From assembly GCA_011773465.1 (NCBI GenBank), contig WVXO01000064.1:57929-121928 (forward strand): a DNA stretch of 64,000 nucleotides, in the 5' to 3' direction. Shown here in pieces: positions 14,352 to 59,615 of this stretch (within the stretch, counting starts at the first letter, position 1; each line of letters opens with the position of its first letter). Made by a program: the position numbers and the translations under genes. This DNA comes from Candidatus Aminicenantes bacterium. GTDB lineage: Bacteria > Acidobacteriota > Aminicenantia > Aminicenantales > Aminicenantaceae. Under the pieces are notes generated by a model. That model saw only the letters and a program-made list of their open reading frames with translations. It did not search any database and had not been told where the DNA came from.

Positions 14352-14426
14352 TGCCGTCTCTTTCTTTATTATCTTAATAAAGCTATTGCTCAAAATTTTT
14401 ATTGAATTCTCATAGAAAGTCAACGG

Positions 14427-14539
14427 GGTCAGACCTTTCAAACTTTTATAAGTTGTATATTTTGGTATAATCTTATAAAGAACTGGGCCATTAAACAAGC
14501 TTCAAATGAAAAAATCATGAAAATTTGAAAGGTCTGACC
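14427..14539. promoter_or_regulatory. 16-bp inverted repeat (ggtcagacctttcaaa / tttgaaaggtctgacc) bracketing an extended -10 promoter-like TGGTATAAT (14463-14471).
   Basis: Both half-sites read directly and are perfect reverse complements ~80 bp apart. TTGACA-N17-TATTTT (14548-14576) follows. Upstream of the DoxX / Gfo-Idh-MocA operon. Confidence 0.45.
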
Positions 14540-32440: not shown

Positions 32441-32947
32441 ATGAAAAAAATTTATAAGCCAATCATTACTTTTTTAATTTTGCTTAATATCTCATTATCT
32501 GCATCGCTTACTTGTTTCAGTCAGGATGAAAAGGAGAAAAAAGGAACCTTAAATCCCAAAAAAATAAGCTCTCTCCAAAAATCATTATTAATCCCGGGTT
32601 GGGGTCAGATAGCAGAAAAGAGATATCTGGAAGGAATTTTATTCTTATCAGCAGAAATCTTTTGTTTTTATAAGATATTTTCATATAATCACAAGGGGAA
32701 TGATTATTATAATCTATACAAAAGAGCGGATAATGTCAGTGATGCCACCAAATACAGAGACCTGACAGAGAAGTTTGACACCAAGAGGAACAGGTTTATT
32801 CTGGCGGCGGCGAGTGTCTGGATCATTAATCTTATTGACATATATATTATTGTAAAAAAAAAGGATGAAAAAGAGAGAAATCTAAGATTAAAGTTTAAGT
32901 TCAATGAAAATAAAGATCTGGCATTTACCATTTCTTATAGCTTTTAG
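32441..32947 (+). CDS. Small membrane protein with a PGWGQ motif (DUF5683-like).
   Basis: Signal or TM segment. 'LLIPGWGQIAEKRYLEGILFLSAEIF' and a second TM helix 'FILAAASVWIINLIDIYII'. Confidence 0.35.
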   Translation: MKKIYKPIITFLILLNISLSASLTCFSQDEKEKKGTLNPKKISSLQKSLLIPGWGQIAEKRYLEGILFLSAEIFCFYKIFSYNHKGNDYYNLYKRADNVSDATKYRDLTEKFDTKRNRFILAAASVWIINLIDIYIIVKKKDEKERNLRLKFKFNENKDLAFTISYSF

Positions 32948-33632
32948 TATTCTTCTTCACCCGTCCTGCAAGGACCGCCTATTCGACAATCCCTTTGATC
33001 CCGAGGCAGGGGAAATCGTCTTTGAGGTAGTTAGCACTATTTTAACTCCTTCCTACGTCCCGCTCTGCCTTACCTGGGACGGCAGCACCATATGGAATGT
33101 CGATGGCTACAATGAGACGCTCTACAGCCTCGACAAGCTTAGTGGAGCTCAAGTTAGAGCTTTAACATCTCCTCTTCCGGGAACAACAGGAATAGCCTAC
33201 GACGGCCAAGACCTCTGGGTATGCAGTGAATTGTCTGTTGATGTTTATAAAATAAATCTGTTAAACGGTGTGATCCAAAAAAGGCTCAATTTGCAAAGAG
33301 GCTCTTTTACAGCTATCGAGTATGGCTTGGATTCTTTATGGCTAGCTGATATTCAATCAAACATGATAATCAGGGTGGACCCAGAAACCGCTGAGATAAT
33401 CTCTTCATTTTCCAATCCGGGCGTTAGCGTAGATGGCTTAGCCTTTGACGGGAATGATTTTTGGATTTCTGACTCTTCAACCCTTACTATCTATCAAGTA
33501 ACCACTGAGGGGAGAGTCTTGAGGACTTTCCTTTCCCCTGGCCAATCTCCTCGAGGATTAGCTTTTGATGGGCATTATCTATGGAATGTGGATGGGGATC
33601 GAAAAATATATCAGTTGAGATTTCAAAATTGA
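32904..33632 (+). CDS. Lipoprotein made of 'DG..LW..D' beta-propeller-type repeats.
   Basis: Lipobox 'LLHPSC'. Four repeats, for example 'LTWDGSTIWNVDGYNETLYSLD' and 'LAFDGHYLWNVDGDRKIYQL'. The same repeat type occurs in CDS 48747-50372. Confidence 0.5.
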   Translation: MKIKIWHLPFLIAFSILLHPSCKDRLFDNPFDPEAGEIVFEVVSTILTPSYVPLCLTWDGSTIWNVDGYNETLYSLDKLSGAQVRALTSPLPGTTGIAYDGQDLWVCSELSVDVYKINLLNGVIQKRLNLQRGSFTAIEYGLDSLWLADIQSNMIIRVDPETAEIISSFSNPGVSVDGLAFDGNDFWISDSSTLTIYQVTTEGRVLRTFLSPGQSPRGLAFDGHYLWNVDGDRKIYQLRFQN

Positions 33633-39469: not shown

Positions 39470-40627
39470 TTAATCTTCTTCAATATCGAGCGCAGAAATT
39501 TCTCTCAGCTTTCTCACAATTTCTGGAAGCTCTTCCAGGACAGTTTTAACATCTTCTTCAGTATTAAAGCGGCCTAAAGACATTCGGATGGAGGAGCGGG
39601 CAACTTCAGGCCTAAGTCCTATAGCTTCGAGAACATGTGAGACTTCCTCGGCTCCTTCGCTGCACGCAGAACCAGTCGAGACATAGATTTCCTTCGTGGC
39701 CAGTGCTAAAAGAATGGCTTCTGCTTCTAAACCATAGAAGGAAAAATTCAAAGTCCCTTTAATCCTCTTTATCTCATGGCCGTTGAATTTCACTTTTGGT
39801 ATTTTTTCCTTAATTCCCTGTTTCAGCTGTTCGGCCAGCTTTGCTATCCTTTTTTTATCCTTATCTTTTTTTTCTGTAATGATCCTTACGGCTTCTCCAA
39901 AGCCAACGATGCCTATTGTATTCTCGGTACCAGCTCTCATTTCTCGCTCTTGATGTCCACCATAAATAAGCGGCAGGATATCTGTCCCTTTCCTAATATA
40001 GAGAGCACCAACTCCTTTAGGTCCATAGATCTTATGAGCGGAAACCGAAAGCAGGTCCACACCCAACTTATTAACATTGACATCTATCTTGCCGAAAGCC
40101 TGAACAGCATCGGTATGAACCAGGACCCCTCTTTCTTTTGCAATTTTGCTTATTTTCTCGATGGGCTGGATTGTTCCCAACTCATTATTAGCAAGCATGA
40201 TTGAGATAAGAGCTGTCTGAGAGGTAATCGCCTTCTTGAGAAAATCGACATCCACGGTCCCATATTGATCCACTGGCACATAAGTGACTTTCATACCCTT
40301 CTCCTCCAGATAGCCAGCTGTATTCATAACAGCTGGGTGTTCAATAGCAGAGGTGATAATTTCGTTTTTTTCAGGCAAAGCATCGAGAATACCTCGAATA
40401 GCAAAATTATCTGACTCTGTTCCTGAAGCAGTAAAGATAATTTCAGTCCTCACAGCTCCTAAAGCCTTGGCAATGACTTCTCGGGCTTCAGTGATGATAT
40501 CTTTGACTTTTCTTCCGATAGGGTAAAGAGAAGACGGGTTTCCGAAGTGTTCTTTGCTAAATTGAGACATTTTTTCCGCGACAGCTGGGTCTAGAGGAGT
40601 TGTCGCATTATTATCTAGGTATATCAT
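39470..40627 (-). CDS. nifS: Cysteine desulfurase (NifS/IscS class V aminotransferase).
   Basis: 'MIYLDNNATTPLDP' start. PLP-lysine motif 'SVSAHKIYGPKG'. Active-site Cys loop 'STGSACSEG'. Confidence 0.9.
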   Translation of the reverse strand: MIYLDNNATTPLDPAVAEKMSQFSKEHFGNPSSLYPIGRKVKDIITEAREVIAKALGAVRTEIIFTASGTESDNFAIRGILDALPEKNEIITSAIEHPAVMNTAGYLEEKGMKVTYVPVDQYGTVDVDFLKKAITSQTALISIMLANNELGTIQPIEKISKIAKERGVLVHTDAVQAFGKIDVNVNKLGVDLLSVSAHKIYGPKGVGALYIRKGTDILPLIYGGHQEREMRAGTENTIGIVGFGEAVRIITEKKDKDKKRIAKLAEQLKQGIKEKIPKVKFNGHEIKRIKGTLNFSFYGLEAEAILLALATKEIYVSTGSACSEGAEEVSHVLEAIGLRPEVARSSIRMSLGRFNTEEDVKTVLEELPEIVRKLREISALDIEED

Positions 40628-45718: not shown

Positions 45719-46897
45719 TCAAATAAACAAAGATTTGGCCTTTCTAAAAGACTCGCTAACTCCTCTAAAAATTCTTCCCAAAGGGCGCTGCCCGAGCTTA
45801 ATGGCCTGGAAGCGGCAAACCTCATGGCAGCACATACAGTGGATACAGCGGCCTCTATCTATCCAAACTGAATCCCCGTCAAATCTTGCTGCTCCTTTAG
45901 GGCATATGTTTACACACTCCACACATAAAGTGCATTTATTCATGACAATCCTTGGAGCGAGTGTCAGCTGGCTTTGGACGAAACCGTGAAGGAATGAGGG
46001 GATCTTTCTCTTGATAAAACCCGCAGCAACAGCTGAATGTTTAAAATTCCTTACTTCAACACCACTTATATCTTCTCCTGCAATCTCTATCTTCTCGATT
46101 TTGCCTATTCCTAAGCCCCTTTCGTGAGCGTTCTGAGTCGTGAAGATGTTCATAGGATTAAAACCCACAATTCTTGATGCAACAGCATCCACTGCTACGC
46201 TATCTTGAGAGGCAATGATGAGCCCAACTCTTTTAGGATTTCCTCCGGATGGTCCTTCACCCTGCATACCTACTATCGCGTCCATGATGGTCAGATGCGG
46301 CGGAGCACAAGAGAAGATATCCACGAGCATCTGGCTAAAAACATCGTTCCCTTTATACAGGCGATGATAATCGAGGCGAAGTCCGTACGGGATTATGCCG
46401 AACATGTTTTTCACGGCCCCTGTTAATGCAGTAAGAGAATGGGTCTTCAATTTGGGAAGATTCAGGATATATTCTGCTTCATGAATAAAAGGAGAAATAA
46501 GGACCTTTTTTAAAATTTGCCCCTTGCAGTTGATTTCTCTAAATCCTCTTTCCTTCAAGTTGACAAGGGGGACACCCAGATCATTGCAGATCCGACGGTA
46601 ACCGGAGAGAAGGAAGCCATCTTTCTCCTTTGATTGGATGTCATCTCCAACTGTTATATCAATATTTAATTCTAACAAAAGGAGCAGGACTTCTCTTGTA
46701 AAGGAAGGATGAGTTACGATAGCATCATCTGGAGATGAAGGAGGGGAGAGATGATTTATTTTGACAAAGACTTTGCTTCGAGGCTTAATGATTTTCTCTA
46801 AGTCGCCCAGAAGAGACAGGTTCCTCTTCAAAGCAGTATGGATCTCTTCACTATTATAGTCAGCAACTTTTACTATCGAGACTTTTGCCTTTTTCAT
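45719..46897 (-). CDS. DUF362-domain protein with a C-terminal 2x[4Fe-4S] ferredoxin domain.
   Basis: C-terminal cysteines 'CTLCVECVNICP' and 'CIHCMCCHEVC'. The N-terminal 'KVSIVKVADY' region is DUF362-like. Confidence 0.65.
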   Translation of the reverse strand: MKKAKVSIVKVADYNSEEIHTALKRNLSLLGDLEKIIKPRSKVFVKINHLSPPSSPDDAIVTHPSFTREVLLLLLELNIDITVGDDIQSKEKDGFLLSGYRRICNDLGVPLVNLKERGFREINCKGQILKKVLISPFIHEAEYILNLPKLKTHSLTALTGAVKNMFGIIPYGLRLDYHRLYKGNDVFSQMLVDIFSCAPPHLTIMDAIVGMQGEGPSGGNPKRVGLIIASQDSVAVDAVASRIVGFNPMNIFTTQNAHERGLGIGKIEKIEIAGEDISGVEVRNFKHSAVAAGFIKRKIPSFLHGFVQSQLTLAPRIVMNKCTLCVECVNICPKGAARFDGDSVWIDRGRCIHCMCCHEVCRFQAIKLGQRPLGRIFRGVSESFRKAKSLFI

Positions 46898-47149: not shown

Positions 47150-48589
47150 ATGACAAATTACTTACTCATCATGGAGAACGATGTGCTTAAGGCAAGACAA
47201 AGAGGATTGACAAGGAAGGATGAGTTTATTACTTTCTTGGCTATGAATATCTTAATCATCGCTGGCGGAATTTCATTAATCATCTTGATCTGTTTTTTCT
47301 TTCTGTTTGCCCTTTACAGTCTTCTGGAGAAAGAAAAAAGAGCTTTCTGGCGCAGCAGCGTTGTCGTTCTTCTTTTAATTATAATAAGCCTTATTTTTTT
47401 CCTAGTTGAACCCCCGTTAAAAAATTGGCTGTTTGCCATCGCCCTTATTGTACTCTTACTGGATCTTGTAATCCTGCTCTTTTCTCCTTTAAAAAGAAAA
47501 TCAACAGAAATTGTAGGGAAACAGAAAAAAATTGATGAAAGAGATGTTATCTTTGCTCGTTTTGAATATAAGGAAGGCACTGCGACTTATAAGGAGTATT
47601 ATACGAGAAAACCTGAATGCAAGAAGATAGATGATGAAATAAGAAGAATTCCTGACATCCTCTCTCCTCCTCATCTGAAAAAACATCCACATCTTTTCTC
47701 TCTGGCTTCTGCAGAGTTTGGCTTTCTTGAACATCAATTAACTCAGGTAAGTGGAAGAGAAAGTAGAGAAAAGTCTCAATTATCACCTTCTGAAAGCACT
47801 CGAATAATAAAGGAAATTATAAAATATTTGGGTTCTGATCTGTGCGGCATCTCTTCTTTAGATCAAGCTTATGTTTACTCCCATGTGGGGAGAGGGCCAG
47901 AACATTATGGTGAGGAAATAAAGCTTGAGCACACTTACGCCATTACTTTTGCTTTAGAGATGGATTTAGGGATGGTTGCAACTGCGCCTAAAGAACCTGT
48001 TATTGTCGAGACTGGGAAGAAATATATCGAAGCGGCAAGAATATCTATCATCGTTGCTGATTTCATCCGCCGCCTTGGATATCCAGCCAGAGCCCATATC
48101 GCGGGAAGCAATTATCAGGCTATGCTACCTCCACTCGCCTGGCTGGCTGGATTAGGAGAATTAGGAAGGCTGGGGATTCTTATCACCTCCAAATACGGGC
48201 CCAGAGCGAGATTAGGGCTTATTACAACCGATATTCCTCTGATTGAGGATAAACCGAAAAAATTGGGTATCCAGAATTTCTGCCAGAAATGCTATAAATG
48301 CGCTAGAAATTGTCCGGCCCAGGCTATTCCTTACGAAAAGAAGGTAGAGGTAAACGGAGTGTTGAAATGGGCGCTTAATCGAGAGGAATGCTATAAATTC
48401 TGGAGAAGAGCAGGTACTGACTGTGCTGTTTGTATTTATGTCTGCCCTTACAGCAAATCGGACAATGCCTTCCACGGCTTTATCAGGAAAGTTATGGAAA
48501 ATTCTGCTGTTGCCCAGTCCTTTTCAGTCTGGGCTGATGACTTTTTCTACGGTCGCGTTCCCCTTCGCAGAAAATCACCTTTAGGTTAA
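47150..48589 (+). CDS. Membrane-anchored reductive-dehalogenase / epoxyqueuosine-reductase (RdhA/QueG)-like Fe-S protein.
   Basis: Three N-terminal TM helices. 'AGLGELGRLGILITSKYGPRARLGLITTDIPL...FCQKCYKCARNCPAQAI...CAVCIYVCP' parallels RdhA/QueG cores. Confidence 0.6.
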   Translation: MTNYLLIMENDVLKARQRGLTRKDEFITFLAMNILIIAGGISLIILICFFFLFALYSLLEKEKRAFWRSSVVVLLLIIISLIFFLVEPPLKNWLFAIALIVLLLDLVILLFSPLKRKSTEIVGKQKKIDERDVIFARFEYKEGTATYKEYYTRKPECKKIDDEIRRIPDILSPPHLKKHPHLFSLASAEFGFLEHQLTQVSGRESREKSQLSPSESTRIIKEIIKYLGSDLCGISSLDQAYVYSHVGRGPEHYGEEIKLEHTYAITFALEMDLGMVATAPKEPVIVETGKKYIEAARISIIVADFIRRLGYPARAHIAGSNYQAMLPPLAWLAGLGELGRLGILITSKYGPRARLGLITTDIPLIEDKPKKLGIQNFCQKCYKCARNCPAQAIPYEKKVEVNGVLKWALNREECYKFWRRAGTDCAVCIYVCPYSKSDNAFHGFIRKVMENSAVAQSFSVWADDFFYGRVPLRRKSPLG

Positions 48590-48626: not shown

Positions 48627-48758
48627 TGCGGGTTTGATAAATCAAACTCTTACAGATTCTAAGAAAAAATGAGCTCGATGAATCAAGCCCCTACAATAAA
48701 TAAAGGTGGGCTCGATGAATCAAGCCCCTACAGATGAATCAAGCCCCTACTTAATGGG
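48627..48758. repeat. Cluster of family A REP-like units.
   Basis: 'gggtttgataaatcaaactcttaca', 'gctcgatgaatcaagcccctacaa' and 'gggctcgatgaatcaagcccctacagatgaatcaagcccctac'. Confidence 0.8.
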
Positions 48759-50372
48759 CTTATTGTATTTTTTTTCTCCCAGGGGAGACCACATTCCATA
48801 GCTTTCTTCATGGATCCGGCATTTGCCTTCAGATGTCCAACTGAATCCGTAGTTATAGCCGAACCACAGGTATTTATCTCCGCCTCCATTCTCGGTGGTG
48901 ATGATATAGCGAGCAGCTACATTCCCGATTCCAAGCACCTTTCTCCCTGGCAAATTTGTATCTCCTTTATTAGCATCAAAAGGAATCCAGCCATAAGGTG
49001 GGAGATAAACTTCAGTCCAGCGGTGATAGACATCATCATAGCTGGCGTCATCTCCACGGCGGCTGACTGCGCCCACATAGCGAATGGGAACTCCCAGAGT
49101 TCGGCAGAGGGCAATCATAGAATATGAATATTCTGAGCAGGAAGCCGTGCCTCGTTTAAGAACTGTAGGAGCAGGATTCCAGCCTCCCAAAGGCTTGAGG
49201 TTATAAGTCAGGTGATTTCCTAGAAAATCATAGATGCGGCGGGCAATCCAGTAAGGATTCTTTTCCTTTCCAGCGATTTTTTGAGCAAGATTCTTGATAT
49301 AAGGATCATTGATACAATATTTATCCCCATCCTGGGTATATTTTTTTCTTATTTCTTTAGGGATGTCTTCCAGGCCGCCTATTTTATCCGGATAAATAAA
49401 GTACTCCGCAGCATATATGTTTGCTTTCACTTTCCAGCCTGGCTTGACGACTGAATTGCCTTTTAAATCTTTGAAATTAAAATGAGCAATTTTCTGTCCC
49501 CAGCTATCTTCGATAATTTCACTCGGTTCAAGGTCAAACCCGACAGGTTCCAGGAGCGATTGATTGTCACGGATTTGGGGAATAGGAAGATAGATGTCTA
49601 AAGTCTTTACTGTCCCTGGACCGTAGTTTCGAAATTCTTTTATAAAATGAAGGGACATCTGACGCTCATCCCACTTGGAGAAAATATCTTTACTGAAGAC
49701 ATCTATCTTGTATATCTCATCATTTTCATAATCGACATTCCAAAGTGAATTATCTCCCCAGGCTAGGCCATAGGCGAACGGACCATAGGCACGCAGAGAA
49801 GAAAGGCACAGTCCATCAGAAGGATTGACTAGATAAATCCGGTCTTCACTCCTATCTGTTACCCATAAATATTTACCGTCATATGCGATACCTGCTGGTT
49901 CTTGGGCCGGAGAGGGAAAGTTTTGGACCATCATCCCGTCCTCGGGGGAAACTTTGATCAGGATATCTCTCCTGTAGTCAACGATCCAGACATATTTTCC
50001 GTCCCAGGCAAGATCACGAGGATTGGAGCTGTTTGATTCCAGGATCGATAGAGCTCTTCCTGTTTCAGGGTCTAAGAGGTACATGTATTTCTCCCCAGAA
50101 TCTATATGCCAGAGATGTTTTCCGTCCCAAGCCAGCCCTTCAGGATGGTGGCCAGGAGAGTCAAAACTTTTAATAATTTTTCCACTCTCTGGATTTACCT
50201 TGTAGATTTTATCTGTAAAATTATCCGCAAGCCAAAGATTTTTCCCATCATAGGTTAGACCTGTCGGGCACGGCCCGGGCGTTTTTATTACTTTTTGGAT
50301 GTCTCCAACTTTTGCCCAGGATAAAGATGAAAGAAGAATCAAAATACAAATGCCTATGCTTATCCTTTTCAT
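48747..50372 (-). CDS. Secreted protein with N-terminal 'DG..LW..D' beta-propeller repeats and a C-terminal transglutaminase-like cysteine protease domain.
   Basis: Signal peptide. Repeats 'LTYDGKNLWLADNFTDKIYKVN' (four copies). Transglutaminase core 'GTASCSEYSYSM...HRWTEVYLPPYGWIPFDANKGD' (Cys-His-Asp). Confidence 0.7.
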   Translation of the reverse strand: MKRISIGICILILLSSLSWAKVGDIQKVIKTPGPCPTGLTYDGKNLWLADNFTDKIYKVNPESGKIIKSFDSPGHHPEGLAWDGKHLWHIDSGEKYMYLLDPETGRALSILESNSSNPRDLAWDGKYVWIVDYRRDILIKVSPEDGMMVQNFPSPAQEPAGIAYDGKYLWVTDRSEDRIYLVNPSDGLCLSSLRAYGPFAYGLAWGDNSLWNVDYENDEIYKIDVFSKDIFSKWDERQMSLHFIKEFRNYGPGTVKTLDIYLPIPQIRDNQSLLEPVGFDLEPSEIIEDSWGQKIAHFNFKDLKGNSVVKPGWKVKANIYAAEYFIYPDKIGGLEDIPKEIRKKYTQDGDKYCINDPYIKNLAQKIAGKEKNPYWIARRIYDFLGNHLTYNLKPLGGWNPAPTVLKRGTASCSEYSYSMIALCRTLGVPIRYVGAVSRRGDDASYDDVYHRWTEVYLPPYGWIPFDANKGDTNLPGRKVLGIGNVAARYIITTENGGGDKYLWFGYNYGFSWTSEGKCRIHEESYGMWSPLGEKKYNKPIK

Positions 50373-50536
50373 GAAAACCTCCTTTAAACGCTTCTAGCTT
50401 TCTCCAATTATAAAAAAAAGATAAGTCTTTAGCAAAGATTTTTGATTTATTATTTTAGGAAGGCTCTTTGGTTTGACAGTCGAGCTTTAAATAATATATG
50501 GTTAAAAAAATCAACCCAATTTGAAAGGAGAAGGGA

Positions 50537-51862
50537 ATGGATACCACTCGTAGGAATTTTCTTAAAAGCATTGGTTTGGGCATCGGGAGTTTAAGTGTTT
50601 TTGGTTTATCCGCAAAAAGCGCCCAAGCTGAACTCAAGAAAAAATTGGCCAAGATAAAAGATTCATCTCCAACCGATATCGCGCAAGATGAAGATTTCTG
50701 GTTCTATGTCCAGCAGGCATTTGATTGTGACCGAAGTATCATAAATCTTAACAACGGAGGTGTTCATCCAGCCCCAAAAATTGTCATGGATGCTGTTCAC
50801 AGATATCTTGATTTCGCTAACGGCGCTCCTGTTTATAACTCATGGCAAGTCCTCCGGCCCAGAAAAGAACTCATAAGAAAAAAACTGGCTGATACTTTCG
50901 GGTGCTCGCCTGAGGAGATTGCCATCACCAGGAATGTAACTGAAGCCATGCAGATAGGTCTCCTTGGGATAGATCTTAAGCAGGGTGATGAACTCTTGAC
51001 CACAACCCATGACTATCCTTCCATGAAATATGCCCTTTTGCAGAGAGAAAAAAGGGAAGGAGTCAAAGTCAAGATGTTTCCTTTTTGCTATCCGCCCAAA
51101 AACATAAATGAACTGGCTGATGCCTTTAAGAAAAATATCACTCCCAGGACCAAGCTCATTGAAGTCTGTCACATCACCAATTTGACGGGTCAGATCTTTC
51201 CGATTAGAGAAATCTGCCAGATGGCAAAAGAGCGAGGAATAGAAGTGGTGGTAGACGGAGCTCATGCTTTTGGACACTTCGAGTTCAAGCAGAAGGACCT
51301 CGACTGCGATATCTACGGTGCTAATCTCCACAAATGGATGATGGCTCCTATAGGCACAGGTTTTCTCTATGTAAAAAAAGAAAAAATCAAGAAGATATGG
51401 CCCCTTTTTCCTGCTCTTGATCCTCAAGGTGATGACATCAGAAAATTTGAACACATCGGAACTCATCCTGATTACCTGGAGCTTGCCGTAGGTGAGGCCT
51501 TGGCCTTCCATCATGGGATCGGTGGTAAGAGAAAAGAAGAGAGAATGCGCTATCTGAGGAATTACTGGGCAAGAGCTCTTGAAAAGCTTCCCGGCGTAAA
51601 AATTCTAACTTCTTATGACCCAGAACAGTCTTGTGGTATAGGAACTTTCACAGTAGAAAACATGGATCTGTCTAAGTTGGTACAGATTCTGTTCGAGAAA
51701 CATAAAATCTACATCATCACAGTCGGAGTGCCATCTTTTGAACTGGATGGTGAACAGATTACTGGGATACGCGTAACGCCAAGCATCTACACAACCCTTC
51801 GCGAATTGGATACCTTTATCGAAGCAGTTTCCTATTATGTAAAACACGGGCTTCCGCAATGA
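50537..51862 (+). CDS. Tat-exported class-V-fold PLP-dependent enzyme (isopenicillin-N-epimerase / cysteine-desulfurase-like).
   Basis: 'TTRRNFLKSIGLGIGSLSVFGLSAKSAQA' Tat signal. 'VVVDGAHAFGH' and 'NLHKWMMAPIGTGFLYV' with PLP lysine. Confidence 0.7.
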   Translation: MDTTRRNFLKSIGLGIGSLSVFGLSAKSAQAELKKKLAKIKDSSPTDIAQDEDFWFYVQQAFDCDRSIINLNNGGVHPAPKIVMDAVHRYLDFANGAPVYNSWQVLRPRKELIRKKLADTFGCSPEEIAITRNVTEAMQIGLLGIDLKQGDELLTTTHDYPSMKYALLQREKREGVKVKMFPFCYPPKNINELADAFKKNITPRTKLIEVCHITNLTGQIFPIREICQMAKERGIEVVVDGAHAFGHFEFKQKDLDCDIYGANLHKWMMAPIGTGFLYVKKEKIKKIWPLFPALDPQGDDIRKFEHIGTHPDYLELAVGEALAFHHGIGGKRKEERMRYLRNYWARALEKLPGVKILTSYDPEQSCGIGTFTVENMDLSKLVQILFEKHKIYIITVGVPSFELDGEQITGIRVTPSIYTTLRELDTFIEAVSYYVKHGLPQ

Positions 51863-52001
51863 AGAAATGAAATCTCTTCTCTCGAAGATATCTCGAATAG
51901 AGATACTTAGCAGAGGTAAAAACAATTACCCAAGACACGGATATTTAGCAAGGATAAAGATAATCACCTGAGATAAAGATATTTGAGGAGTATAGCACAA
52001 G

Positions 52002-53225
52002 ATGAGATGGAATTTGGAACATGATCTTGATTTGATAAGGAAGGAATTCCCGATTTTAGAACGCTGTGTTTATCTCATCAGCAATTCATTGGGAGCTGTT
52101 CCCGGGAGAGCGCTGGAGAATCTACAGAAATTTTATCAGATTTGGGCAGAGGAAGGTGTGAGCGCTTGGGAGAAGGAATGGTGGGGCCTTTCGCGAAAAG
52201 TAGGAAATCAGGTGGCTTATTTTCTGGGAGCAGGCGAAGATGAAGTGACAATGATACCTAATGCAACTCACTGTCATTGGGTCGCTCTTTCGACTAAATT
52301 TCTTGCCCAAGACGAGAGAAGAAAAAAGATTGTCATGACAGACCATGACTTTCCTTCCATGATATACGCGGTCTCAAGAATCTCAGACTTCAGGGGATGG
52401 AAGGTTGAGATAGTGAGAAGTAACGGCAATCCAGGAATTGACGTCGAAGATATTTTAAAACGAATAGATGAAGAAACCCTTTTTGTTGCCACCTCCCATG
52501 TTTATTATAAATCAGCTTATATCCAGAACATAAAACAGATTTCTTCCAGGGCACGAGAAGTAGGCGCTCTGACTCTTATCGACGGCTATCATGCACCGGG
52601 TATCATTCCCGTGGATGTCAAACAACTTGATGCAGACTTTTATATAGGAGGCTGTCTGAAGTGGCTGTGCGGAGGGCCGGGAAACGCTTTCCTTTATGTT
52701 AGACCAGAGCTTTCAGAGAATCTCGATCCTCAGTTAACTGGCTGGTTTGCTCACCGAGAACCTTTCCTTTTTGCTCAAGATATGGAGTATGCCAGGGGAG
52801 GACAAAAGTTCATGTCAGGTACTCCGCCGGTACCTTGCCTTTACACAGCAAGGGCTGGCCTGGAGATCCTGAAAAAAATTGGAATCCCTGAAGTACGGGA
52901 TAAGTCGCTCTCCCTTACTGAGTTGATCATAAAAAAAGCCAAAGAAAGAGGATATCGTATTTTCACACCTGAAGAGAATAACCTCAGGGGAGGATCAGTC
53001 TCAATCAGCTTGCCCCATGCTTTTCCCCTTAAGCAGGCTCTAGATAAGCGTAGAGTTAAGGTTGATTTCAGGAAAGGGGATGATAAAGAACCAGATGTTA
53101 TAAGAGTGGGCCCTCATTTTTACAATAACGATGAAGAAATCGATATCTTATTCAAAGAAATCGATGCTATTTATGCTTCAGGAGAATTTAAGAAATTTCC
53201 AACGGGAATAAAGCATGTGACCTGA
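52002..53225 (+). CDS. Kynureninase-like class-V-fold PLP-dependent enzyme.
   Basis: 'YLISNSLGAVPG' (compare kynureninase 'YLDGNSLGA.P') and 'GGCLKWLCGGPG' (compare 'SYKYLN.GPG'). Confidence 0.5.
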   Translation: MRWNLEHDLDLIRKEFPILERCVYLISNSLGAVPGRALENLQKFYQIWAEEGVSAWEKEWWGLSRKVGNQVAYFLGAGEDEVTMIPNATHCHWVALSTKFLAQDERRKKIVMTDHDFPSMIYAVSRISDFRGWKVEIVRSNGNPGIDVEDILKRIDEETLFVATSHVYYKSAYIQNIKQISSRAREVGALTLIDGYHAPGIIPVDVKQLDADFYIGGCLKWLCGGPGNAFLYVRPELSENLDPQLTGWFAHREPFLFAQDMEYARGGQKFMSGTPPVPCLYTARAGLEILKKIGIPEVRDKSLSLTELIIKKAKERGYRIFTPEENNLRGGSVSISLPHAFPLKQALDKRRVKVDFRKGDDKEPDVIRVGPHFYNNDEEIDILFKEIDAIYASGEFKKFPTGIKHVT

Positions 53226-53237
53226 TGCAAAATTAAG

Positions 53238-54272
53238 ATGGAAAAAATATCAAGGCGGAATTTTTTGGATGATTCATTGTTTTTAATGGGTTCTGCTCTT
53301 TTTCTCCCCTTTAGTTCACTCCGCTTGAAAGGGAAGGCTTTCTTGGATAACAGGGAAAATTCGAAAGAATACCCTTCTTACCTCGCACTTGATAAGAAAG
53401 GGACGCTTTCCGAGCGCGAAGAGAAATTGTATTCAATATATGAGAACTGCCATCTTTGTCCCCGAGATTGTCGCGTCAACAGGAAGGAAGGCCAAGTTGG
53501 AAGATGTCAGGCTACTTCCAGGGTAAAAATTTCAAGTGCTGCTCCCAGTTTTGATGAAGAACCCCTTTTGGTAGGGAAAAGCGGGTCTGGCGCCATATTC
53601 TTTTCCAACTGCGGGTTAAGGAGTGTTTACAGCCATGATTATAAGATTAGTATCGAAGGGGAGGGGATAGAAATATCAGACCAGAAATTGGCAGAAGAGA
53701 TGGTCAAACTCCAAAAAAAAGGATGTCACAATATCAATCTTGTTACTCCCACTCACTACGCACCCAACATCGTCAGCGCCATCCAGAAGGCTATCCCCCT
53801 GGGTTTCCGAATTCCTGTGGTCTATAATACACGCGGGTATGAGAAACAGGAAACTTTACAGCTTCTGGACGGCATAATCGATATCTACCTTACTGAGTGC
53901 AAATACATGGATTCTGAGCAGGCAGGTAAGTACTCGGCTGAGGCTTACAATTATCCTCACCATGCTAAGCTTGCCATTAAAGAGATGTACCGGCAGGTCG
54001 GGGATCTAAAATTAGATTCAAGAGGAATTGCTGTACGAGGATTGATTGTGAGGCATCTGATCCTCCCCAACAGGATAGCTGGAACAGAGAAATTTTTAAT
54101 ATTCATTGCCGAAAACCTTTCCAAGACTACCTACATTAATATTATGAATCAGTATCAACCTCGATACAAAGCCTCCGAATATCCTGAAATAGCCCGGAGC
54201 ATTAAGAGAAGCGAGTATAATGAAGCTCTAAAATGGGCCAAGAAATATGGCCTTACTCACCTGGCAAGATAG
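53238..54272 (+). CDS. PflX-type (COG1313) radical-SAM-fold protein with a degenerate CxxxCxxC motif and a Tat-like N-terminus.
   Basis: 'CHLCPRDCRVNRKEGQVGRC' matches the PflX N-terminal 'C.LCPR.C.V.R..G..G.C'. 'EEPLLVGKSGSGAIFFSNCGLRSVYSHD' aligns with 'EEP..SG..GSGTIFFSGCNLRCVFCQN', with two Cys replaced by Ser. N-terminus 'MEKISRRNFLDDSLFLMGSALFLP'. Confidence 0.55.
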   Translation: MEKISRRNFLDDSLFLMGSALFLPFSSLRLKGKAFLDNRENSKEYPSYLALDKKGTLSEREEKLYSIYENCHLCPRDCRVNRKEGQVGRCQATSRVKISSAAPSFDEEPLLVGKSGSGAIFFSNCGLRSVYSHDYKISIEGEGIEISDQKLAEEMVKLQKKGCHNINLVTPTHYAPNIVSAIQKAIPLGFRIPVVYNTRGYEKQETLQLLDGIIDIYLTECKYMDSEQAGKYSAEAYNYPHHAKLAIKEMYRQVGDLKLDSRGIAVRGLIVRHLILPNRIAGTEKFLIFIAENLSKTTYINIMNQYQPRYKASEYPEIARSIKRSEYNEALKWAKKYGLTHLAR

Positions 54273-54454: not shown

Positions 54455-56815
54455 ATGAAAATCCTTAGAATTTTTCTCCTTACTCTCATTTCATTTTGCC
54501 TACTGCTTCAAGGAATTCATGCTGAAATTGACTATCGATGGAAGGATGTCTACATAGGCGCTTTGGAGGCCAAGGCCTGGGGCGGCCTTGTCCTTGCTCC
54601 AAGTCAAGATAGTGTATTTGCTTTTCGAATCCAAATTGAAAAAGAAAATGAAGTTGCTGACGGAAATGACATTTTATATCTCATATCTGAAGTTGGCCCC
54701 CACTCTCCCGACTGTTCGTATGCAAGGATAAAACTGGATTTGAGCCTTCCTTTTAAAAGAGGGAATGAAACTCCGGTTCTTATAAAGCCTCCCTCAAGAT
54801 CAGATACATTAGTTTTGGAGTGGTCACGTCAGGATGAGCGAACAGTCATAGGAAGGATAACTTCTCCACCGAATGTAAAGATTAATCTTATTCATTATTT
54901 CCCCTGGAATTTTGAAGGAACATATCTCATTCTTCCTGATGGCCAGATAAAAGGAGAGAGTTCGGGTGTAATTAAATATCATTATTTGCTCTGGACAGAT
55001 ACAAAAGGAGATCTAATCACAGATTCTCTTGGTGATGAGTTGGCTGTTTCTTTCTTTATGGAAGATAATAGAGCTATTTATTTTGTGGCAGGAGTAGGGA
55101 AGGAAGAAAAGATTTTGAGCGCCCGCACGTATCGCTATAAAAACAAAGGAGCAATCGATTCTATGCTAGAGGAGGAAAGAAACAGATATAGAGGCAAAAG
55201 AGTAAGAATAGAGGGACTCCACGAAGGCACGGCACGGGCAATCACAAATAACCTATTCTGGATGGTGCTTTATCAACCTGGCAGCCATAGACTTTACACG
55301 CCAGGAGGGCGCGGATTGATCTTTTCCACTCCCGAAGGAAATCCTGGTCATTGGACGATATTCGAATGGGATTCATTCTTCAACGCCTTAGGGGCATCTG
55401 TGGAAAGTTCTAAGCATGCGAAAGACATTTTAAAGGCTGTCCTGGAAACTCAGTACGCTAATGGCAATATCCCTAACTGGAGAAGCCGGTTTGGAGGGAC
55501 ACCAGACAGGTCTCATCCTCCAATAGGTTCTTATATTGTCTTGAAATTATTCCAGAGGCTGGGAGATTTGGACTTTCTGAGATATGCTTATCCTTATCTT
55601 ATAAGGTGGCATTATTTCTGGAAGCAGGAGAAAGATAACGGACAACTTCGCCGGGATGGAAATAGAGATGGTCTTCTTGAATGGGGAACAGATACAGAAT
55701 TTTTGCCTCAGAGTGTTCCCCCCTGGAAAGAAAATATAGAAGGAAAAAAACGAGCTATGCGAGAGTCAGGACAGGATGATCTGCCTAATTGGGACGATGC
55801 TCCCTTCAGTCAGGAAACGGGAACGTTAATTATGAACTGCATCGATTTAAACAGCCTCTATACTCTCGACGCTTGGTGCCTGGCTGAAATTGCAAATATC
55901 CTTGATAAAAGAGACGATTATAACAACTTCTTCTCCGAATATGAGGCTATGAAGGAGCTTATAAACGAGCATCTTTGGGATGAGAGAGAAGGATTTTATT
56001 TTGATCGCTACTGGGATAGCAGATTCTCAACAAGAAAAGCAGCCTCGAATTTTTATCCTCTGCTTGCCGGTATTCCAGATAAAACGAGGGCCTTACGAAT
56101 GCTCAGACATCTCCTTGATCCTGAAGAGTTCTGGGGTGAATTCGTAATACCTACGATCTCCCGGGATGATCCCTCTTATAAAGATCAGCAGCGCTGGAGA
56201 GGGGCAATCTGGCCTCCTACCAATTATTTAATTTATCAAGGTTTAAAGGCTTATCATTTTGATGCTATAGCTTCTGAGCTAGCCAAAAAAAGCTCTGACT
56301 TGTTCCTCCGGACATGGGAAAATTTCCAGCTTTGTCCAGAAAATTTTGATTCAAGGACAGGAGAAGCAGGAGGGCAAAGATTCCAGAGTTGGGGTTCTCT
56401 TTTTGCTTTAATTGCTCTGGAAGAGTACTTAGATTTTACTCCCTGGGAGGGATTCAGGTTTGGAATGATTGATCCTGATGGAAGAGGCAAGCTTTCCAGA
56501 ATTTCCATCCAGGATCGTCACTATGATGTAGAGGTTTCACCCTCTGGGATTAGGCTTAAAGAAGAAGGTAAAGAGATTTTTAGGGCGAAGGGAAGCGCCG
56601 TTTTTCGCCAGTTTCTTTATTCTGAAAATGAAATCTCATTTGAAGTGATAACGTTAGAGAGAAGAGAGATAAGGATTCAATTTCTAACCAAAGGAAAATA
56701 TGAACTTTTGGTGGATGACGAGACAAAAAAGGTGTTTAAAGGAAAAGGAGTGAAGTTTAGAGTTCCTGAAGGCGAACATTCTGTTTTGATTCTTCTTTTA
56801 GAAAAACAGGGATAA
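54455..56815 (+). CDS. Secreted (alpha/alpha)6-barrel glycoside hydrolase, GH63-like (processing alpha-glucosidase / mannosylglycerate hydrolase family).
   Basis: Signal peptide. 'HWTIFEWDSFFNALG' resembles the GH63 'FLWDEGFH' motif. Trp and acidic residue-rich C-terminal barrel. Confidence 0.45.
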   Translation: MKILRIFLLTLISFCLLLQGIHAEIDYRWKDVYIGALEAKAWGGLVLAPSQDSVFAFRIQIEKENEVADGNDILYLISEVGPHSPDCSYARIKLDLSLPFKRGNETPVLIKPPSRSDTLVLEWSRQDERTVIGRITSPPNVKINLIHYFPWNFEGTYLILPDGQIKGESSGVIKYHYLLWTDTKGDLITDSLGDELAVSFFMEDNRAIYFVAGVGKEEKILSARTYRYKNKGAIDSMLEEERNRYRGKRVRIEGLHEGTARAITNNLFWMVLYQPGSHRLYTPGGRGLIFSTPEGNPGHWTIFEWDSFFNALGASVESSKHAKDILKAVLETQYANGNIPNWRSRFGGTPDRSHPPIGSYIVLKLFQRLGDLDFLRYAYPYLIRWHYFWKQEKDNGQLRRDGNRDGLLEWGTDTEFLPQSVPPWKENIEGKKRAMRESGQDDLPNWDDAPFSQETGTLIMNCIDLNSLYTLDAWCLAEIANILDKRDDYNNFFSEYEAMKELINEHLWDEREGFYFDRYWDSRFSTRKAASNFYPLLAGIPDKTRALRMLRHLLDPEEFWGEFVIPTISRDDPSYKDQQRWRGAIWPPTNYLIYQGLKAYHFDAIASELAKKSSDLFLRTWENFQLCPENFDSRTGEAGGQRFQSWGSLFALIALEEYLDFTPWEGFRFGMIDPDGRGKLSRISIQDRHYDVEVSPSGIRLKEEGKEIFRAKGSAVFRQFLYSENEISFEVITLERREIRIQFLTKGKYELLVDDETKKVFKGKGVKFRVPEGEHSVLILLLEKQG

Positions 56816-56837: not shown

Positions 56838-57683
56838 CTATTTTTTCCATTCTAAATAGGCCCTTTTCAGCGTGTCACCTCTGACTCCCTGTCTTAGAGC
56901 CTCCAGAGCTAAAACCTCTTCTGGAGGGATATTGCCAAGGTTTACGTTAATCCCCAGGCGAAGGATTAAAGCTTGCTGCTGATTTTTCAAGGGAGCCTCC
57001 CACATTAAACAGTTCGTGTCTTTGACTCCAGCAATGATGTGATCGACTTCTTCGTGCTTGATCTCTCCTTCTTTGTCAAATATTCCTACGGACTTCCCGG
57101 CCTCTCTGGCTTCGATAATAACCTTAAAAGCTCCATTTTCCATATCTTCTCCTATCAACTGGTGAACAAGAGAAATAGGAAGAACTTCTTTTGGATCTTT
57201 TTTTCCTACTTCAGTAATGACTTTGAAGCCCTTATCCAAAGATTTTTTAATGGCATCCTGTCTGGTTTCTTTATCTATCTCGATCGTTCCATCAGAGACT
57301 TCAATCGCAGAAAATCCAAGCGTCTTGGCTAATTCTAAATATTCGTCAAAGACATCTTGCCAGATAGCTATCTCCAGAAAGGTGCCTCCGGGCATGACTT
57401 CTATATCGGAAGAAGTGATCATCTCATTCTTTTTGTTCAAAAGGTCCTTATCATAGAAGGCCGAAGTCCCAAAGGTCAGTTTGATGATATCGATGTAGTC
57501 GCCCTCAACCTGAATCAAATCTTCGAGGCGATGAAGGCCCATTCCTTTATCAATAACCATGGTTACGCCCGTCTCTCTGGGTTTGGATGTTCTCCCTTCA
57601 ACGGGCATCTTGATAATATCTCCCCAAGCTTTGCTCATCTTTATCTCCTTTTTGGTTTTTTCAGGGTCAGACTTTGTCATCAT
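56838..57683 (-). CDS. comA: (2R)-phospho-3-sulfolactate synthase (ComA) family protein.
   Basis: 'KPRETGVTMVIDKG', 'GDYIDIIKLTFGTS', 'ITEVGKK', 'IIEAREAGKSVGIFDK' and 'EAPLKNQQQALI...VNLGNI...LRQGVRGDT' are collinear with archaeal ComA. Confidence 0.75.
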   Translation of the reverse strand: MMTKSDPEKTKKEIKMSKAWGDIIKMPVEGRTSKPRETGVTMVIDKGMGLHRLEDLIQVEGDYIDIIKLTFGTSAFYDKDLLNKKNEMITSSDIEVMPGGTFLEIAIWQDVFDEYLELAKTLGFSAIEVSDGTIEIDKETRQDAIKKSLDKGFKVITEVGKKDPKEVLPISLVHQLIGEDMENGAFKVIIEAREAGKSVGIFDKEGEIKHEEVDHIIAGVKDTNCLMWEAPLKNQQQALILRLGINVNLGNIPPEEVLALEALRQGVRGDTLKRAYLEWKK

Positions 57684-57739
57684 ATTGAGAATTGGTCTGT
57701 ATTTTATTAGTGAACATCACCTCATGATAAAGTCTGACC

Positions 57740-58711
57740 CTATTTCAAAAGATCTCCCCAGCAATCATTTGGATTTGAGAGAACAGAAGCAATTTTAGTG
57801 ATTGTCTTGTGATGGATAAGCTGGCTTACATATTTTAACCTTGCCAGAGCCATTTCTTTCTTGTCGAATCCCAAAACTGGTATTTTATCGTAGAGAATCA
57901 CGTTCTCGGCTATTTTCTGGGAAATATTGTCAAACAAGGCTTTTGCGGCTTTTCTCGTATCGTCTATGAGATTCAGAAGAAAACCTTTTCGCCCTTCTTC
58001 AATCCGAGGAAACAATATTACGACAGACTTGGGAGTTTTGAGTTCTTCAAGGTCAGTTTTGTAGGGGGAGAGATCAAGGGCGATCTTTTTCTGCCATTCT
58101 TCACCAGCTTCTTGAGTTTCAATTTTTGGTAAGAACTGAGGAAAATCATGCATCAAGGTACCTAATCGCACGTTATCAACGAGCGAACCCATAAACCATG
58201 ATACGAGATCATTTTCAATTCGGAAGTGGAGGGTTTCTGTTGAAAAGAGTTTGAGCCCTTTGGCCAGGCCACTAAGGAGATAGACGGTTTTTCCGCTTCC
58301 AGCTCCTCCTATAACAACAAACATTTGATCTTTCTTTTCTTGGTAGAGCGCGCAGGCGTGAAAATTATAAATCCCGTGCTTTCTCTCCAGTAAATAAAGA
58401 GCATATCTATAAAGGAATCCCTGGTTTCCCCACAAACTAAACCGTAAGTCCGAAGCTTCTCGAGTGAGCTTAAGAAAAGGCCCCTTGAATCTGGCTTTTC
58501 CTCTTGAAAATTCGAAAGAAGGCTCCTCCATAGATTCTTCAACCGAGATATATCCATCAAGGTCTGCTGAATATGGTATGCTCTCAACATCTTTAAAATC
58601 TGTAAGAAGCGACATGACTTCCGTCTGGAGTGGAAAGTGAAAAAGGAGCTCTTCTCTATTAGATTCGATCCCGATTTTTGCCTCTAGTATCTTTATCCCT
58701 GCCTTGTACAC
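57740..58711 (-). CDS. HprK-related P-loop kinase-like protein. GTG start.
   Basis: 'HACALYQEKKDQMFVVIGGAGSGKTVYLLSGLAKGLKLFSTETL' parallels the HPr kinase C-terminal domain 'HG.L....G.GvLi.G.SG.GKSE.ALEL...G..L.ADD'. Confidence 0.4.
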   Translation of the reverse strand: MYKAGIKILEAKIGIESNREELLFHFPLQTEVMSLLTDFKDVESIPYSADLDGYISVEESMEEPSFEFSRGKARFKGPFLKLTREASDLRFSLWGNQGFLYRYALYLLERKHGIYNFHACALYQEKKDQMFVVIGGAGSGKTVYLLSGLAKGLKLFSTETLHFRIENDLVSWFMGSLVDNVRLGTLMHDFPQFLPKIETQEAGEEWQKKIALDLSPYKTDLEELKTPKSVVILFPRIEEGRKGFLLNLIDDTRKAAKALFDNISQKIAENVILYDKIPVLGFDKKEMALARLKYVSQLIHHKTITKIASVLSNPNDCWGDLLK

Positions 58712-58922
58712 AACTTTTTCCTTGTTTATCTTAGATAACTACATGATACAAAATAAAATTTAACTCTACAATAATTTGATGCGACAGGAATGAAAATAGA
58801 GTGCTGGCTGTTGGGGAGAAAATAAGCAAAAGGGGAAAAGGAGGATTAGATCCTGCCCAGCCAGCCTAGCAGGGTCATTAAGTTTAGTCGAGAAAATAGA
58901 GAAAAAATGGAAAAAACAATTC

Positions 58923-59615
58923 TTATTTGATAGCGGTGTGAATGGCAGAAACACCCAGGAAAAGTGACCGATAAGTAACCCGAGCGAATCCCGCCTCACG
59001 TAGTATCGAGGAAAATTCCTCAGGAGGAAAAAAGCGCGGGATCGTGTAAGCAAGATATCTGTAAGCGGCTTTAGAGCCTGAGAGAAGAGACCCTAGTTGT
59101 TTTACAGTCAGTCTTATATAAAGATGAAAAAGCCTCTGGATAATTCTCATAGAAGGCTGACTAGTTTCAAGATTCACAAAATGTCCTTCAGGCTTGAGAA
59201 CACGATGAAACTCCTTTAGATGGGCAACCAGCTCTCGTTTGTTAGGATATATGTTTCGGGTGGCAAAAGAGATGGTCACCAGGTTGAATGTCATGTCAAC
59301 AAAAGGCAAACGCCCTGACTCAGCAAGAACAAAAGAGAAGTTTGGAATTTCTCTTTTCTCTAGGGCTCTATTTATCATCGGATGACAGAAATCGACAGAA
59401 ACAATCTTAACTTTTTCACCTGCCAGACGTGAAAGGTTAAGAGCCATTTCTCCAGTACCGCTGCACACATCCAGCCATAGAAAGCCTCTTGCTTTGACCG
59501 CTTCCCTAGCTGCTTTTCTCCGCCAAAGAATATCAAGCCCAAATGTCAGGATATGATTGACAAGCTCATAAGTTTTTGCAGCTTCAGAAAATATTTTTTG
59601 AATGCCTTTTCTCAT
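58923..59615 (-). CDS. ubiE: Class I SAM-dependent methyltransferase, UbiE/MenG/COQ5-like.
   Basis: 'IFSEAAKTYELVNHILTFGLDILWRR' and SAM motif I 'LDVCSGTGEMAL'. Confidence 0.7.
   Translation of the reverse strand: MRKGIQKIFSEAAKTYELVNHILTFGLDILWRRKAAREAVKARGFLWLDVCSGTGEMALNLSRLAGEKVKIVSVDFCHPMINRALEKREIPNFSFVLAESGRLPFVDMTFNLVTISFATRNIYPNKRELVAHLKEFHRVLKPEGHFVNLETSQPSMRIIQRLFHLYIRLTVKQLGSLLSGSKAAYRYLAYTIPRFFPPEEFSSILREAGFARVTYRSLFLGVSAIHTAIK

Follow-up and report, generated by a model that had tools for sequence, protein, structure and literature searches.

A gene string specific to Aminicenantes combines a Tat-signal PLP enzyme, a kynureninase-like enzyme, and a radical-SAM descendant without cluster ligands

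Introduction

Do two pyridoxal phosphate (PLP) enzymes and a degenerate radical S-adenosylmethionine (SAM) protein, encoded side by side, form one periplasmic system? The question is raised by a 64,000-nucleotide stretch of contig WVXO01000064.1 from a Candidatus Aminicenantes bacterium (the window), in which four co-oriented genes, here termed g1 to g4, follow each other on the + strand (Table 1). An NCBI protein assigned to an uncultured Candidatus Aminicenantes metagenome-assembled genome matches the g3 product with 100% identity. An earlier note on this DNA had described the first three genes, which lie 139 and 12 bp apart, and had proposed that they constitute a periplasmic module for PLP-dependent amino-acid or thiol chemistry, possibly a novel extracytoplasmic modification or scavenging system. 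While the gene arrangement is as described, our analysis favors another answer, which we hold to be fairly probable: g1 to g4 form a co-oriented, Aminicenantes-specific gene string with four products of recognizable kinds that are only loosely coupled.

Results

g1 is a PvdN-like class V PLP enzyme with a Tat signal

The g1 product is a class V PLP enzyme, as the earlier note had stated. It passes the Pfam threshold for Aminotran_5 (PF00266; 149 bits, 2e-43; gathering threshold 21.5), and both the Schiff-base lysine and the pyridine-nitrogen aspartate are present. The lysine, K266 (nt 51332-51334), lies in an NLHKW motif and aligns with the HKW of PvdN, the periplasmic pyoverdine-tailoring enzyme of Pseudomonas; alignment with relatives places D240 at the aspartate position and R412 at the position of the substrate-carboxylate arginine. 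PvdN is the nearest family overall. Its model (NF051467) is the best NCBIfam match and aligns end to end, including the signal, and PvdN itself is the best solved relative by sequence (PDB 5i90, 2e-34), with the Synechocystis cystine C-S lyase C-DES (PDB 1elq/1n2t; 3e-29) in second place. Foldseek again returns 5i90 as the top match for the AlphaFold2 model of g1, a low-confidence model (predicted local distance difference test, pLDDT, 60) that is poor because the alignment behind it is shallow.

Besides the class V fold and the Tat (twin-arginine translocation) signal, g1 and PvdN share the aligned HKW lysine motif and the absence of the desulfurase cysteine. In contrast, their identity is only ~24%, and g1 stays below the PvdN equivalog cut-off (166 versus 650 bits). 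Pfam scans of 39 of the 49 window open reading frames (ORFs) of at least 150 aa revealed no pyoverdine gene context such as pvdM/pvdO-type or nonribosomal peptide synthetase genes. Moreover, the host of g1 is an uncultured, presumably anaerobic Aminicenantes bacterium rather than a pseudomonad. C-DES, like g1, belongs to a class V subgroup without the persulfide-forming cysteine; unlike g1, it lacks a signal peptide and stays in the cytoplasm. A role of g1 or g2 as cysteine desulfurase (SufS/IscS/NifS) was considered and rejected, since this catalytic cysteine, which desulfurases carry in the C-terminal active-site loop, is missing from both. At the position of STGSACS in the window's own IscS/NifS-like gene, g1 reads ITVGVPS and g2 RRVKVDF, and both proteins score far under the cysteine desulfurase family cut-offs.

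The N-terminus of g1, MDTTRRNFLKSIGLGIGSLSVFGLSAKSAQA/E, fits the Tat consensus S/T-R-R-x-F-L-K and continues with a 16-residue uncharged h-region and AQA. The homologue search yielded Aminicenantes proteins of at least 75% identity only, and within this range [ST]RRxFLK plus AxA is conserved in 118 of 120 sequences. Based on the consensus motif, its conservation, and the PvdN precedent, g1 is very probably exported by Tat as a PLP holo-enzyme, in agreement with the earlier note. Tat export with PLP bound has been established experimentally for PvdN and for the periplasmic transaminase A (PtaA) of Pseudomonas, and PvdN mutated at its active-site lysine is not transported (PMC6206403). As a principle, Tat export of a PLP enzyme is thus already known, and g1 follows this precedent. 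Unlike g1, whose nearest relatives are PvdN and the C-S-lyase group, PtaA has been described as an ordinary transaminase, and it is also found beyond siderophore clusters (PMC6206403). The principle that it illustrates, Tat transport with the cofactor bound, is the one proposed here for g1.

From the fold, the key residues, and the conserved motif, we infer that g1 would fold and bind PLP in the cytoplasm and then leave by Tat as a holo-enzyme. In the periplasm, it would attack its substrate at the alpha-amino-acid end, much as PvdN or C-DES do, by a lyase, decarboxylase, or transaminase reaction. It would thereby be an anaerobic, non-siderophore addition to the short list of Tat-travelling PLP enzymes and suggests that PLP chemistry in the periplasm reaches further than the Pseudomonas examples.

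Three more window ORFs (24826-25806, +; 15284-16981, +; 13617-14498, -) have an RR-type N-terminus that continues with 14 or more uncharged residues; they include an AmiA-like amidase (MNRREFFTLAAG...) and a GFO/IDH/MocA oxidoreductase. AmiA is a classical Tat substrate, and the presence of these ORFs suggests that the organism uses Tat; tatA or tatC was not seen in the window.

g2 is a kynureninase-family enzyme without a signal peptide

The kynureninase-like nature ascribed to g2 is borne out. Its product matches Aminotran_5 with 137.5 bits (threshold 21.5) and KYNU_C with 58.5 bits (threshold 27), and its best solved relative is the kynureninase of P. fluorescens (1qz9, 5e-51, over residues 8-370). 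With kynureninase it shares the KYNU_C domain, the aligned PLP lysine (K220, nt 52659-52661), and the C-terminal arginine (R368); D194 is likewise aligned with relatives. It differs from kynureninase in the residue preceding the PLP lysine, which is Leu and not Tyr, and in its score against the equivalog TIGR01814, which remains below the cut-off (156.9 versus 246.4 bits). No tryptophan/kynurenine pathway families occur among the window ORFs scanned against Pfam. As g2 has no signal peptide, it is predicted to be cytoplasmic and would work there, which argues against a wholly periplasmic module.

g3 has lost two cluster ligands and remains under selection

g3 itself has no Pfam, NCBIfam, or PDB sequence match, even at E <= 10, and its homology was established via a large protein collection that holds thousands of relatives. 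Its closest relatives, ~30 clusters at 82-100% identity, do not match PF04055 either. In contrast, relatives at <=74% identity do so and carry the JGI name 'putative pyruvate formate lyase activating enzyme'. These intact orthologues, which share 65-74% identity with g3, reach 37-55 bits against Radical_SAM (PF04055; threshold 29.5), while none of them matched a curated NCBIfam equivalog. Since g3 lacks a Pfam match of its own and its orthologues pass PF04055, profile evidence identifies it as a relative of the radical SAM superfamily by descent and not as a functional member. It resembles PflX (COG1313) and the related AmmeMemoRadiSam enzymes (TIGR04337) in the N-terminal CxxCPRxC...C motif and in overall length. 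It departs from the PflX family by its cluster motif, by the missing Pfam match, and by a Tat-like extension of ~44 aa, which is absent from most family members. The previous description of g3 as a degenerate PflX homologue with a Tat-like N-terminus is thus correct.

The degeneration is centered on the cluster motif, which is C-x3-C-x2-C in intact relatives and C125-x3-S129-x2-S132 in g3. Accordingly, FFSNCGLRCV(Y/F)CQN in the intact proteins aligns with FFSNCGLRSVYS(H/Q/P)D in the clade of the window. Positions 129 and 132 are Ser in 29 of 29 degenerate-clade sequences and Cys in 85 of 85 intact homologues. The two serine codons, AGT and AGC, are the same in five independent assemblies, and each is a single T>A change away from TGY. 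Seven more positions that are invariant in intact proteins are replaced in the degenerate clade (H104, G106, T119, N134, D220, A230, and Y242). On the other hand, the clade retains C125, C163, C221, and the four-cysteine motif C71/C74/C78/C90, which is invariant in both clades. With two of three cluster ligands and seven otherwise invariant positions changed, g3 most likely no longer performs radical-SAM chemistry.

Nevertheless, g3 is not a pseudogene, a possibility that we rejected on the ratio of nonsynonymous to synonymous substitution rates (dN/dS), which shows purifying selection. For g3, comparisons inside the clade give dN/dS values of 0.136-0.150 (dS 0.41-0.71), compared with 0.12-0.135 for g4, 0.119 for g2, 0.081 for g1, and 0.05-0.11 for the phosphosulfolactate synthase gene ComA in the same genome pairs. 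A pair of intact g3 orthologues at similar dS gives 0.061. Hence, g3 is under purifying selection that is relaxed about two-fold. In a neighbor-joining tree, the degenerate clade sits on a long stem inside the clade of syntenic orthologues. Both degenerate-clade genomes in the genome-collection scan carry a second, intact g3 paralogue in another context (L011 and L018). Only one of the loci returned, L003 (CP070825), belongs to a complete Aminicenantes chromosome, and it shows a single g3 copy, which is intact. As to the partial TIM-barrel fold of radical-SAM proteins, the AlphaFold2 model of g3 (pLDDT 70) finds its best structural matches in LipA, a viperin-like protein, SuiB, and HydE; these matches are weak (TMq 0.36-0.40, E > 0.01).

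In the proposed course of events, g3 would derive from a PflX-type radical-SAM enzyme that had acquired its Tat signal earlier, and in the sublineage of the window the SAM-cleaving [4Fe-4S] cluster would then have lost two of its three ligands to serine replacements. We take the present protein for a pseudo-enzyme that serves in binding, as a structural part, or through a second site, with its four-cysteine site kept and the intact paralogue as a back-up. It offers a datable natural experiment in which two ligands were lost by two identical T>A changes with selection retained, and intact orthologues as well as the paralogue are at hand for side-by-side comparison.

The intact paralogues (L011 8001-9026 and L018 8001-9023; 62-65% identity) have a Tat-type N-terminus. 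The same type of paralogue occurs at L083 759-1790 and L084 144-1175, just upstream of genes for an aldehyde:ferredoxin oxidoreductase (AFOR_N/AFOR_C) and a GH95 protein. In the wider PflX family, four more representatives of 50%-identity clusters (P0302, P0312, P0319, and P0337) have no complete CX3CX2C and keep the N-terminal CxxCxxxC...C, so loss of radical-SAM ligands may be recurrent in this family. At L133 4501-5489, a g3 orthologue that is otherwise of the intact type falls into two reading frames near residue 160, owing to either a frameshift or an assembly error.

g3 descends from a radical-SAM subfamily with Tat-type signals

The g3 N-terminus follows the Tat consensus in part. It comprises SRRNFL and a 16-residue h-region followed by R/K, but D-D succeeds F-L and an AxA site is lacking. 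SRRNFL and the 16-residue uncharged stretch are conserved across Aminicenantes g3 proteins, and the RR motif is present in 77 of 80 loci of the g3 family. Relatives in Desulfobacterota, Acidobacteriota, Planctomycetota, and other phyla carry a canonical signal composed of TRRDFIK, a G/S/L-rich h-region, and SLHA or SLYA. In the wider PflX family, only 2 of the 150 best 50%-identity cluster representatives have a Tat-type extension. The other 148 are signal-less and start with the conserved (Y)P(S/A)YL at a distance of ~300 aa from the C-terminal end. This pattern indicates that a subfamily with an added Tat signal arose from a cytoplasmic PflX-type family. g3 itself is an orthologue of intact PflX-type radical-SAM proteins that bear Tat-type signals. 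This subfamily is the most unusual aspect of the locus. Literature searches on radical-SAM enzymes that are exported or carry Tat signals, on PflX, and on AmmeMemoRadiSam yielded no relevant paper, and the role of a SAM-dependent radical fold behind an export signal is a question that we did not find addressed in the searchable literature.

Within the cluster-less clade, the RR pair is mostly kept (confirmed on DNA for at least 14 loci), with altered versions in L002/L095 (SQRNLL) and P0008 (ARSNFL). In L081, P0027, P0028, and P0030, the whole signal is removed by an exact in-frame deletion (MKKIS-NPKEYPSYL), which brings back the signal-less architecture of the wider PflX family. At L081 (4324-5253), the deletion comprises the ~35-aa Tat-like signal, while synteny is otherwise identical, including the 12-nt gap after g2. 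Among intact g3 proteins, no signal loss was verified, and apparent cases are start-codon calls inside the signal. A general erosion of the signal in the degenerate clade was considered as well and withdrawn, as most of the 23 of 28 apparently RR-less proteins are gene-call artefacts by DNA reading.

Public gene calls often place the start of g3 or its orthologues inside or after the signal (window 53238-53345; L082 5974-6000; L007), and the NCBI product of the window g3 has 309 aa and begins at residue 36. We favor the longer ORF because the upstream RR segment is conserved. In L003, alignment places the g3 start at an ATA codon, with AAAGGAG 8 nt before it.

Outside Aminicenantes, an AmmeMemoRadiSam-type radical-SAM gene adjoins the g3 relative in 31 of the 43 loci with room for it, usually in convergent orientation (e.g., L028 2842-3840, +, and 3973-5082, -; range L026-L080). 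This neighbor scores 354 bits against TIGR04337 (cut-off 220). Its N-terminus likewise shows RR or KR (T[KR]REFLK), and it contains a hydrophobic stretch that includes Cys. The vicinity of these pairs revealed neither AMMECR1 nor Memo genes.

g1 and g2 are probably accessory to a stable g3-g4 core

The gene following g3 encodes a secreted hydrolase related to glycoside hydrolase family 63 (GH63), as previously proposed. g4 matches PF22422 (MGH1-like) with 159.6 bits and PF03200 (GH63) with 64 bits, in addition to a trehalase domain. It passes the profile of the GH63/MGH1-like catalytic (alpha/alpha)6 domain and has a Sec-type signal. It resembles the YgjK-type periplasmic GH63 alpha-glucosidase of E. 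coli (NF007525) and MGH1-like proteins in the MGH1-like, trehalase, and GH63 C-terminal domains and the secretion signal, but is distinct from YgjK by score (72 bits versus a cut-off of 625). g4 would thus act as a Sec-exported GH63-like glycosidase.

Gene neighborhoods were anchored on g3, which gave 34 syntenic loci with assessable upstream content. The conservation analysis suggested by the earlier note reveals that the order g1-g2-g3-g4 does recur in relatives, exclusively in Aminicenantes and down to ~55% g3 identity, so the proposal of a gene set does not fall for want of conservation. While g3-g4 is constant in syntenic Aminicenantes loci, the upstream part varies. Both g1 and g2 precede g3 in about 19 loci, including all 10 cluster-less ones. 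g1 alone is found in 6 (L006, L014, L017, L022, L023, and L096), g2 alone in 7 (L004, L010, L013, L104, L105, L133, and L148), and neither in 2 (L020 and L102). In L096, a g2 remnant (1552-1866) in which aa 3-33 are joined to aa 331-407 lies between intact g1 and g3, indicating that g2 is being lost by internal deletion. Outside the phylum, none of 55 loci with g3 relatives has a class V PLP or GH63 neighbor. Consequently, g1 and g2 are probably accessory and were lost independently in different lineages, whereas g3-g4 is the stable core. Together with the missing export signal of g2, this distribution leaves a coherent three-gene periplasmic PLP module unsupported. Of the suggested novel extracytoplasmic system, the likely Tat export of a PLP enzyme, g1, stands, whereas the Tat-PLP principle is not new and an obligate three-gene set is not found.

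The string is flanked upstream by a variable set of DUF362-ferredoxin, reductive-dehalogenase-like, and transglutaminase-like genes and downstream, usually, by a convergent block encoding ComA, a P-loop protein, and UbiE. In L086, g1-g2-g3-g4 persist with a different downstream block, and g1 and g2 overlap by 4 bp.

Discussion

Several observations weigh against our reading of a loosely coupled string. The g3 N-terminus is off the Tat consensus at the D-D that replaces K after F-L and at the absent AxA site, and in some members of the clade it carries mutations or has been deleted. Of the 34 informative loci, 32 have one or both PLP genes immediately upstream of g3, and the four-gene string survives in L086 despite its altered surroundings; both facts hint at more functional coupling. 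Furthermore, the AlphaFold2 models of g3 and g1 are mediocre, and the fold match of g3 to solved radical-SAM structures is weak. Finally, serine occasionally ligates Fe-S clusters, so the loss of the g3 cluster is something we infer.

The tightest coupling would be a single extracytoplasmic PLP-dependent modification or scavenging system in which g1, g2, g3, and perhaps g4 depend on each other. The conserved order down to ~55% g3 identity, the short spacers (12 bp between g2 and g3; the 4-bp overlap in L086), the class V PLP gene directly upstream of g3 in nearly all informative loci, the Tat-type N-termini of g1 and g3, and the Sec signals of g4 and the upstream transglutaminase-like gene are in line with such a system. 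However, we consider it unlikely, as g2 lacks a signal peptide, loci with g1 alone, g2 alone, or neither exist, g2 is decaying in L096, and no g3 relative outside Aminicenantes has a PLP neighbor. Moreover, g3 lost its cluster ligands while g1 and g2 stayed strongly constrained (dN/dS 0.08-0.12), and with more than 15 flanking genes also syntenic, shared ancestry explains much of the conserved order. At the other end, g3 of the window might be a functionless relic heading for loss, its Cys>Ser exchanges being plain inactivating mutations. Such a fate would fit the loss of two of three ligands, a dN/dS about twice that of the intact pair (0.14-0.15 versus 0.06), the intact paralogue in the same genomes, the clade members without RR pair or entire signal, and the four other family representatives without CX3CX2C. 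Yet a dN/dS of ~0.14 at dS 0.4-0.7 reflects strong purifying selection, equal to that on the neighboring g4. In addition, an unbroken frame is seen in ~30 sequence clusters and was confirmed on DNA for at least 16 loci, S129 and S132 do not vary, the four-cysteine motif, C125, C163, and C221 are fully conserved, and the signal deletion is precisely in frame, all of which makes a relic decidedly improbable.

Two further explanations concern the location of g3. Its RR N-terminus could be a membrane anchor or a chaperone-binding vestige instead of an export signal, which would keep the protein at the cytoplasmic face and leave only g1 and g4 exported. Radical-SAM chemistry needs SAM and a low-potential reductant, neither of which, to our knowledge, is known outside the cytoplasm. 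The literature searches returned no paper on an exported radical-SAM enzyme, the Aminicenantes versions combine a missing AxA site with a fairly hydrophobic h-region, and 148 of the 150 best wider-family representatives have no signal. Against this stand the textbook Tat signals in Desulfobacterota and other phyla, which end exactly where signal-less homologues begin. Additionally, RR on the cytoplasmic side plus a single N-terminal helix would put the domain outside, and RR loss and in-frame signal deletion are confined to the cluster-less clade; a retained anchor or vestige is therefore doubtful in our view. Conversely, Tat-signal PflX-type proteins of Aminicenantes, Desulfobacterota, and other phyla, often accompanied by a second Tat-tagged radical-SAM protein, might be truly exported extracytoplasmic Fe-S proteins. 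The string would then be an extracytoplasmic set of Tat-PLP g1, Tat-radical-SAM g3, and Sec-GH63 g4, and in the lineage of the window an exported radical-SAM protein would have become a cluster-less periplasmic pseudo-enzyme. We rate this scenario as rather improbable. The loosely coupled string remains our preferred reading; it establishes no new system, and its practical value lies in well-defined constructs for testing.

Layout and surroundings of the string

The spacer between g3 and g4 measures 182 bp. It is plausible that g1 to g4 constitute one operon, probably transcribed from a promoter upstream of g1, where a sigma-70-like match precedes a strong ribosome-binding site (Table 1). Terminator scans detect no + strand terminator-like hairpin in any spacer of g1-g4. 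The promoter and terminator scans barely exceed the shuffled expectation (17 sigma-70-like sites observed across the whole region versus 12.6 expected) and do not settle the operon structure. The g1-g2 spacer has no Rfam match and no significant RNA structure (folding z = -1.0), and Rfam and tRNA checks of the window found nothing.

Table 1. Coordinates, strand, and description of g1 to g4, their sequence elements, and neighboring genes in the window
Feature	Position	Strand	Description
Sigma-70-like promoter match	50473-50502	+	TTGACA-18-TATGGT, 5' of g1; consensus match only
Ribosome-binding site	~50526-50533	+	AGGAG-type, strong; between promoter match and g1 start
g1 ORF	50537-51862	+	441 aa; PvdN/C-DES-like class V (fold-type I) PLP enzyme
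g1 Tat signal peptide, aa 1-31	50537-50629	+	T-R-R-N-F-L-K, h-region SIGLGIGSLSVFGLSA, c-region K-S-A-Q-A, then E
g2 ORF	52002-53225	+	407 aa; kynureninase-family class V PLP enzyme, no signal peptide
g3 ORF	53238-54272	+	344 aa; PflX (COG1313)-type radical-SAM-derived protein
g3 Tat-like N-terminus, aa 1-28	53238-53321	+	S-R-R-N-F-L-D-D, then h-region SLFLMGSALFLPFSSL; no AxA site
g3 N-terminal four-cysteine motif	53448-53507	+	CHLCPRDCRVNRKEGQVGRC (C71, C74, C78, C90)
g3 degenerate radical-SAM cluster motif	53610-53633	+	CGLRSVYS (C125, S129, S132)
g4 ORF	54455-56815	+	786 aa; Sec-signal GH63/MGH1-like glycoside hydrolase
IscS/NifS-like gene	39470-40627	-	STGSACS motif
DUF362-ferredoxin gene	45719-46897	-	
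Reductive-dehalogenase-like ORF	47150-48589	+	adjoins the DUF362-ferredoxin gene
Gene upstream of g1	48747-50372	-	secreted beta-propeller/transglutaminase-like protein
ComA/P-loop/UbiE block	56838-59615	-	convergent to g4

The downstream block of the window encodes the phosphosulfolactate synthase ComA (343 bits), a 323-aa P-loop protein (GGAGSGKT) without any family or PDB match, and a UbiE-type methyltransferase. It is conserved in convergent orientation to g4 in most syntenic Aminicenantes loci. On the upstream side, the reductive-dehalogenase-like ORF passes an NCBIfam reductive dehalogenase subfamily cut-off (163 versus 160 bits) and has several N-terminal transmembrane-looking segments in place of the usual Tat signal. 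A low-GC stretch at 30-38 kb contains PEGA-domain proteins and two large ORFs without a Pfam match (21744-23966 and 33581-35506). It also harbors, at ~32900-33650 (+), a partial paralogue of the repeat region of the beta-propeller/transglutaminase-like protein, with 27-37% identity.

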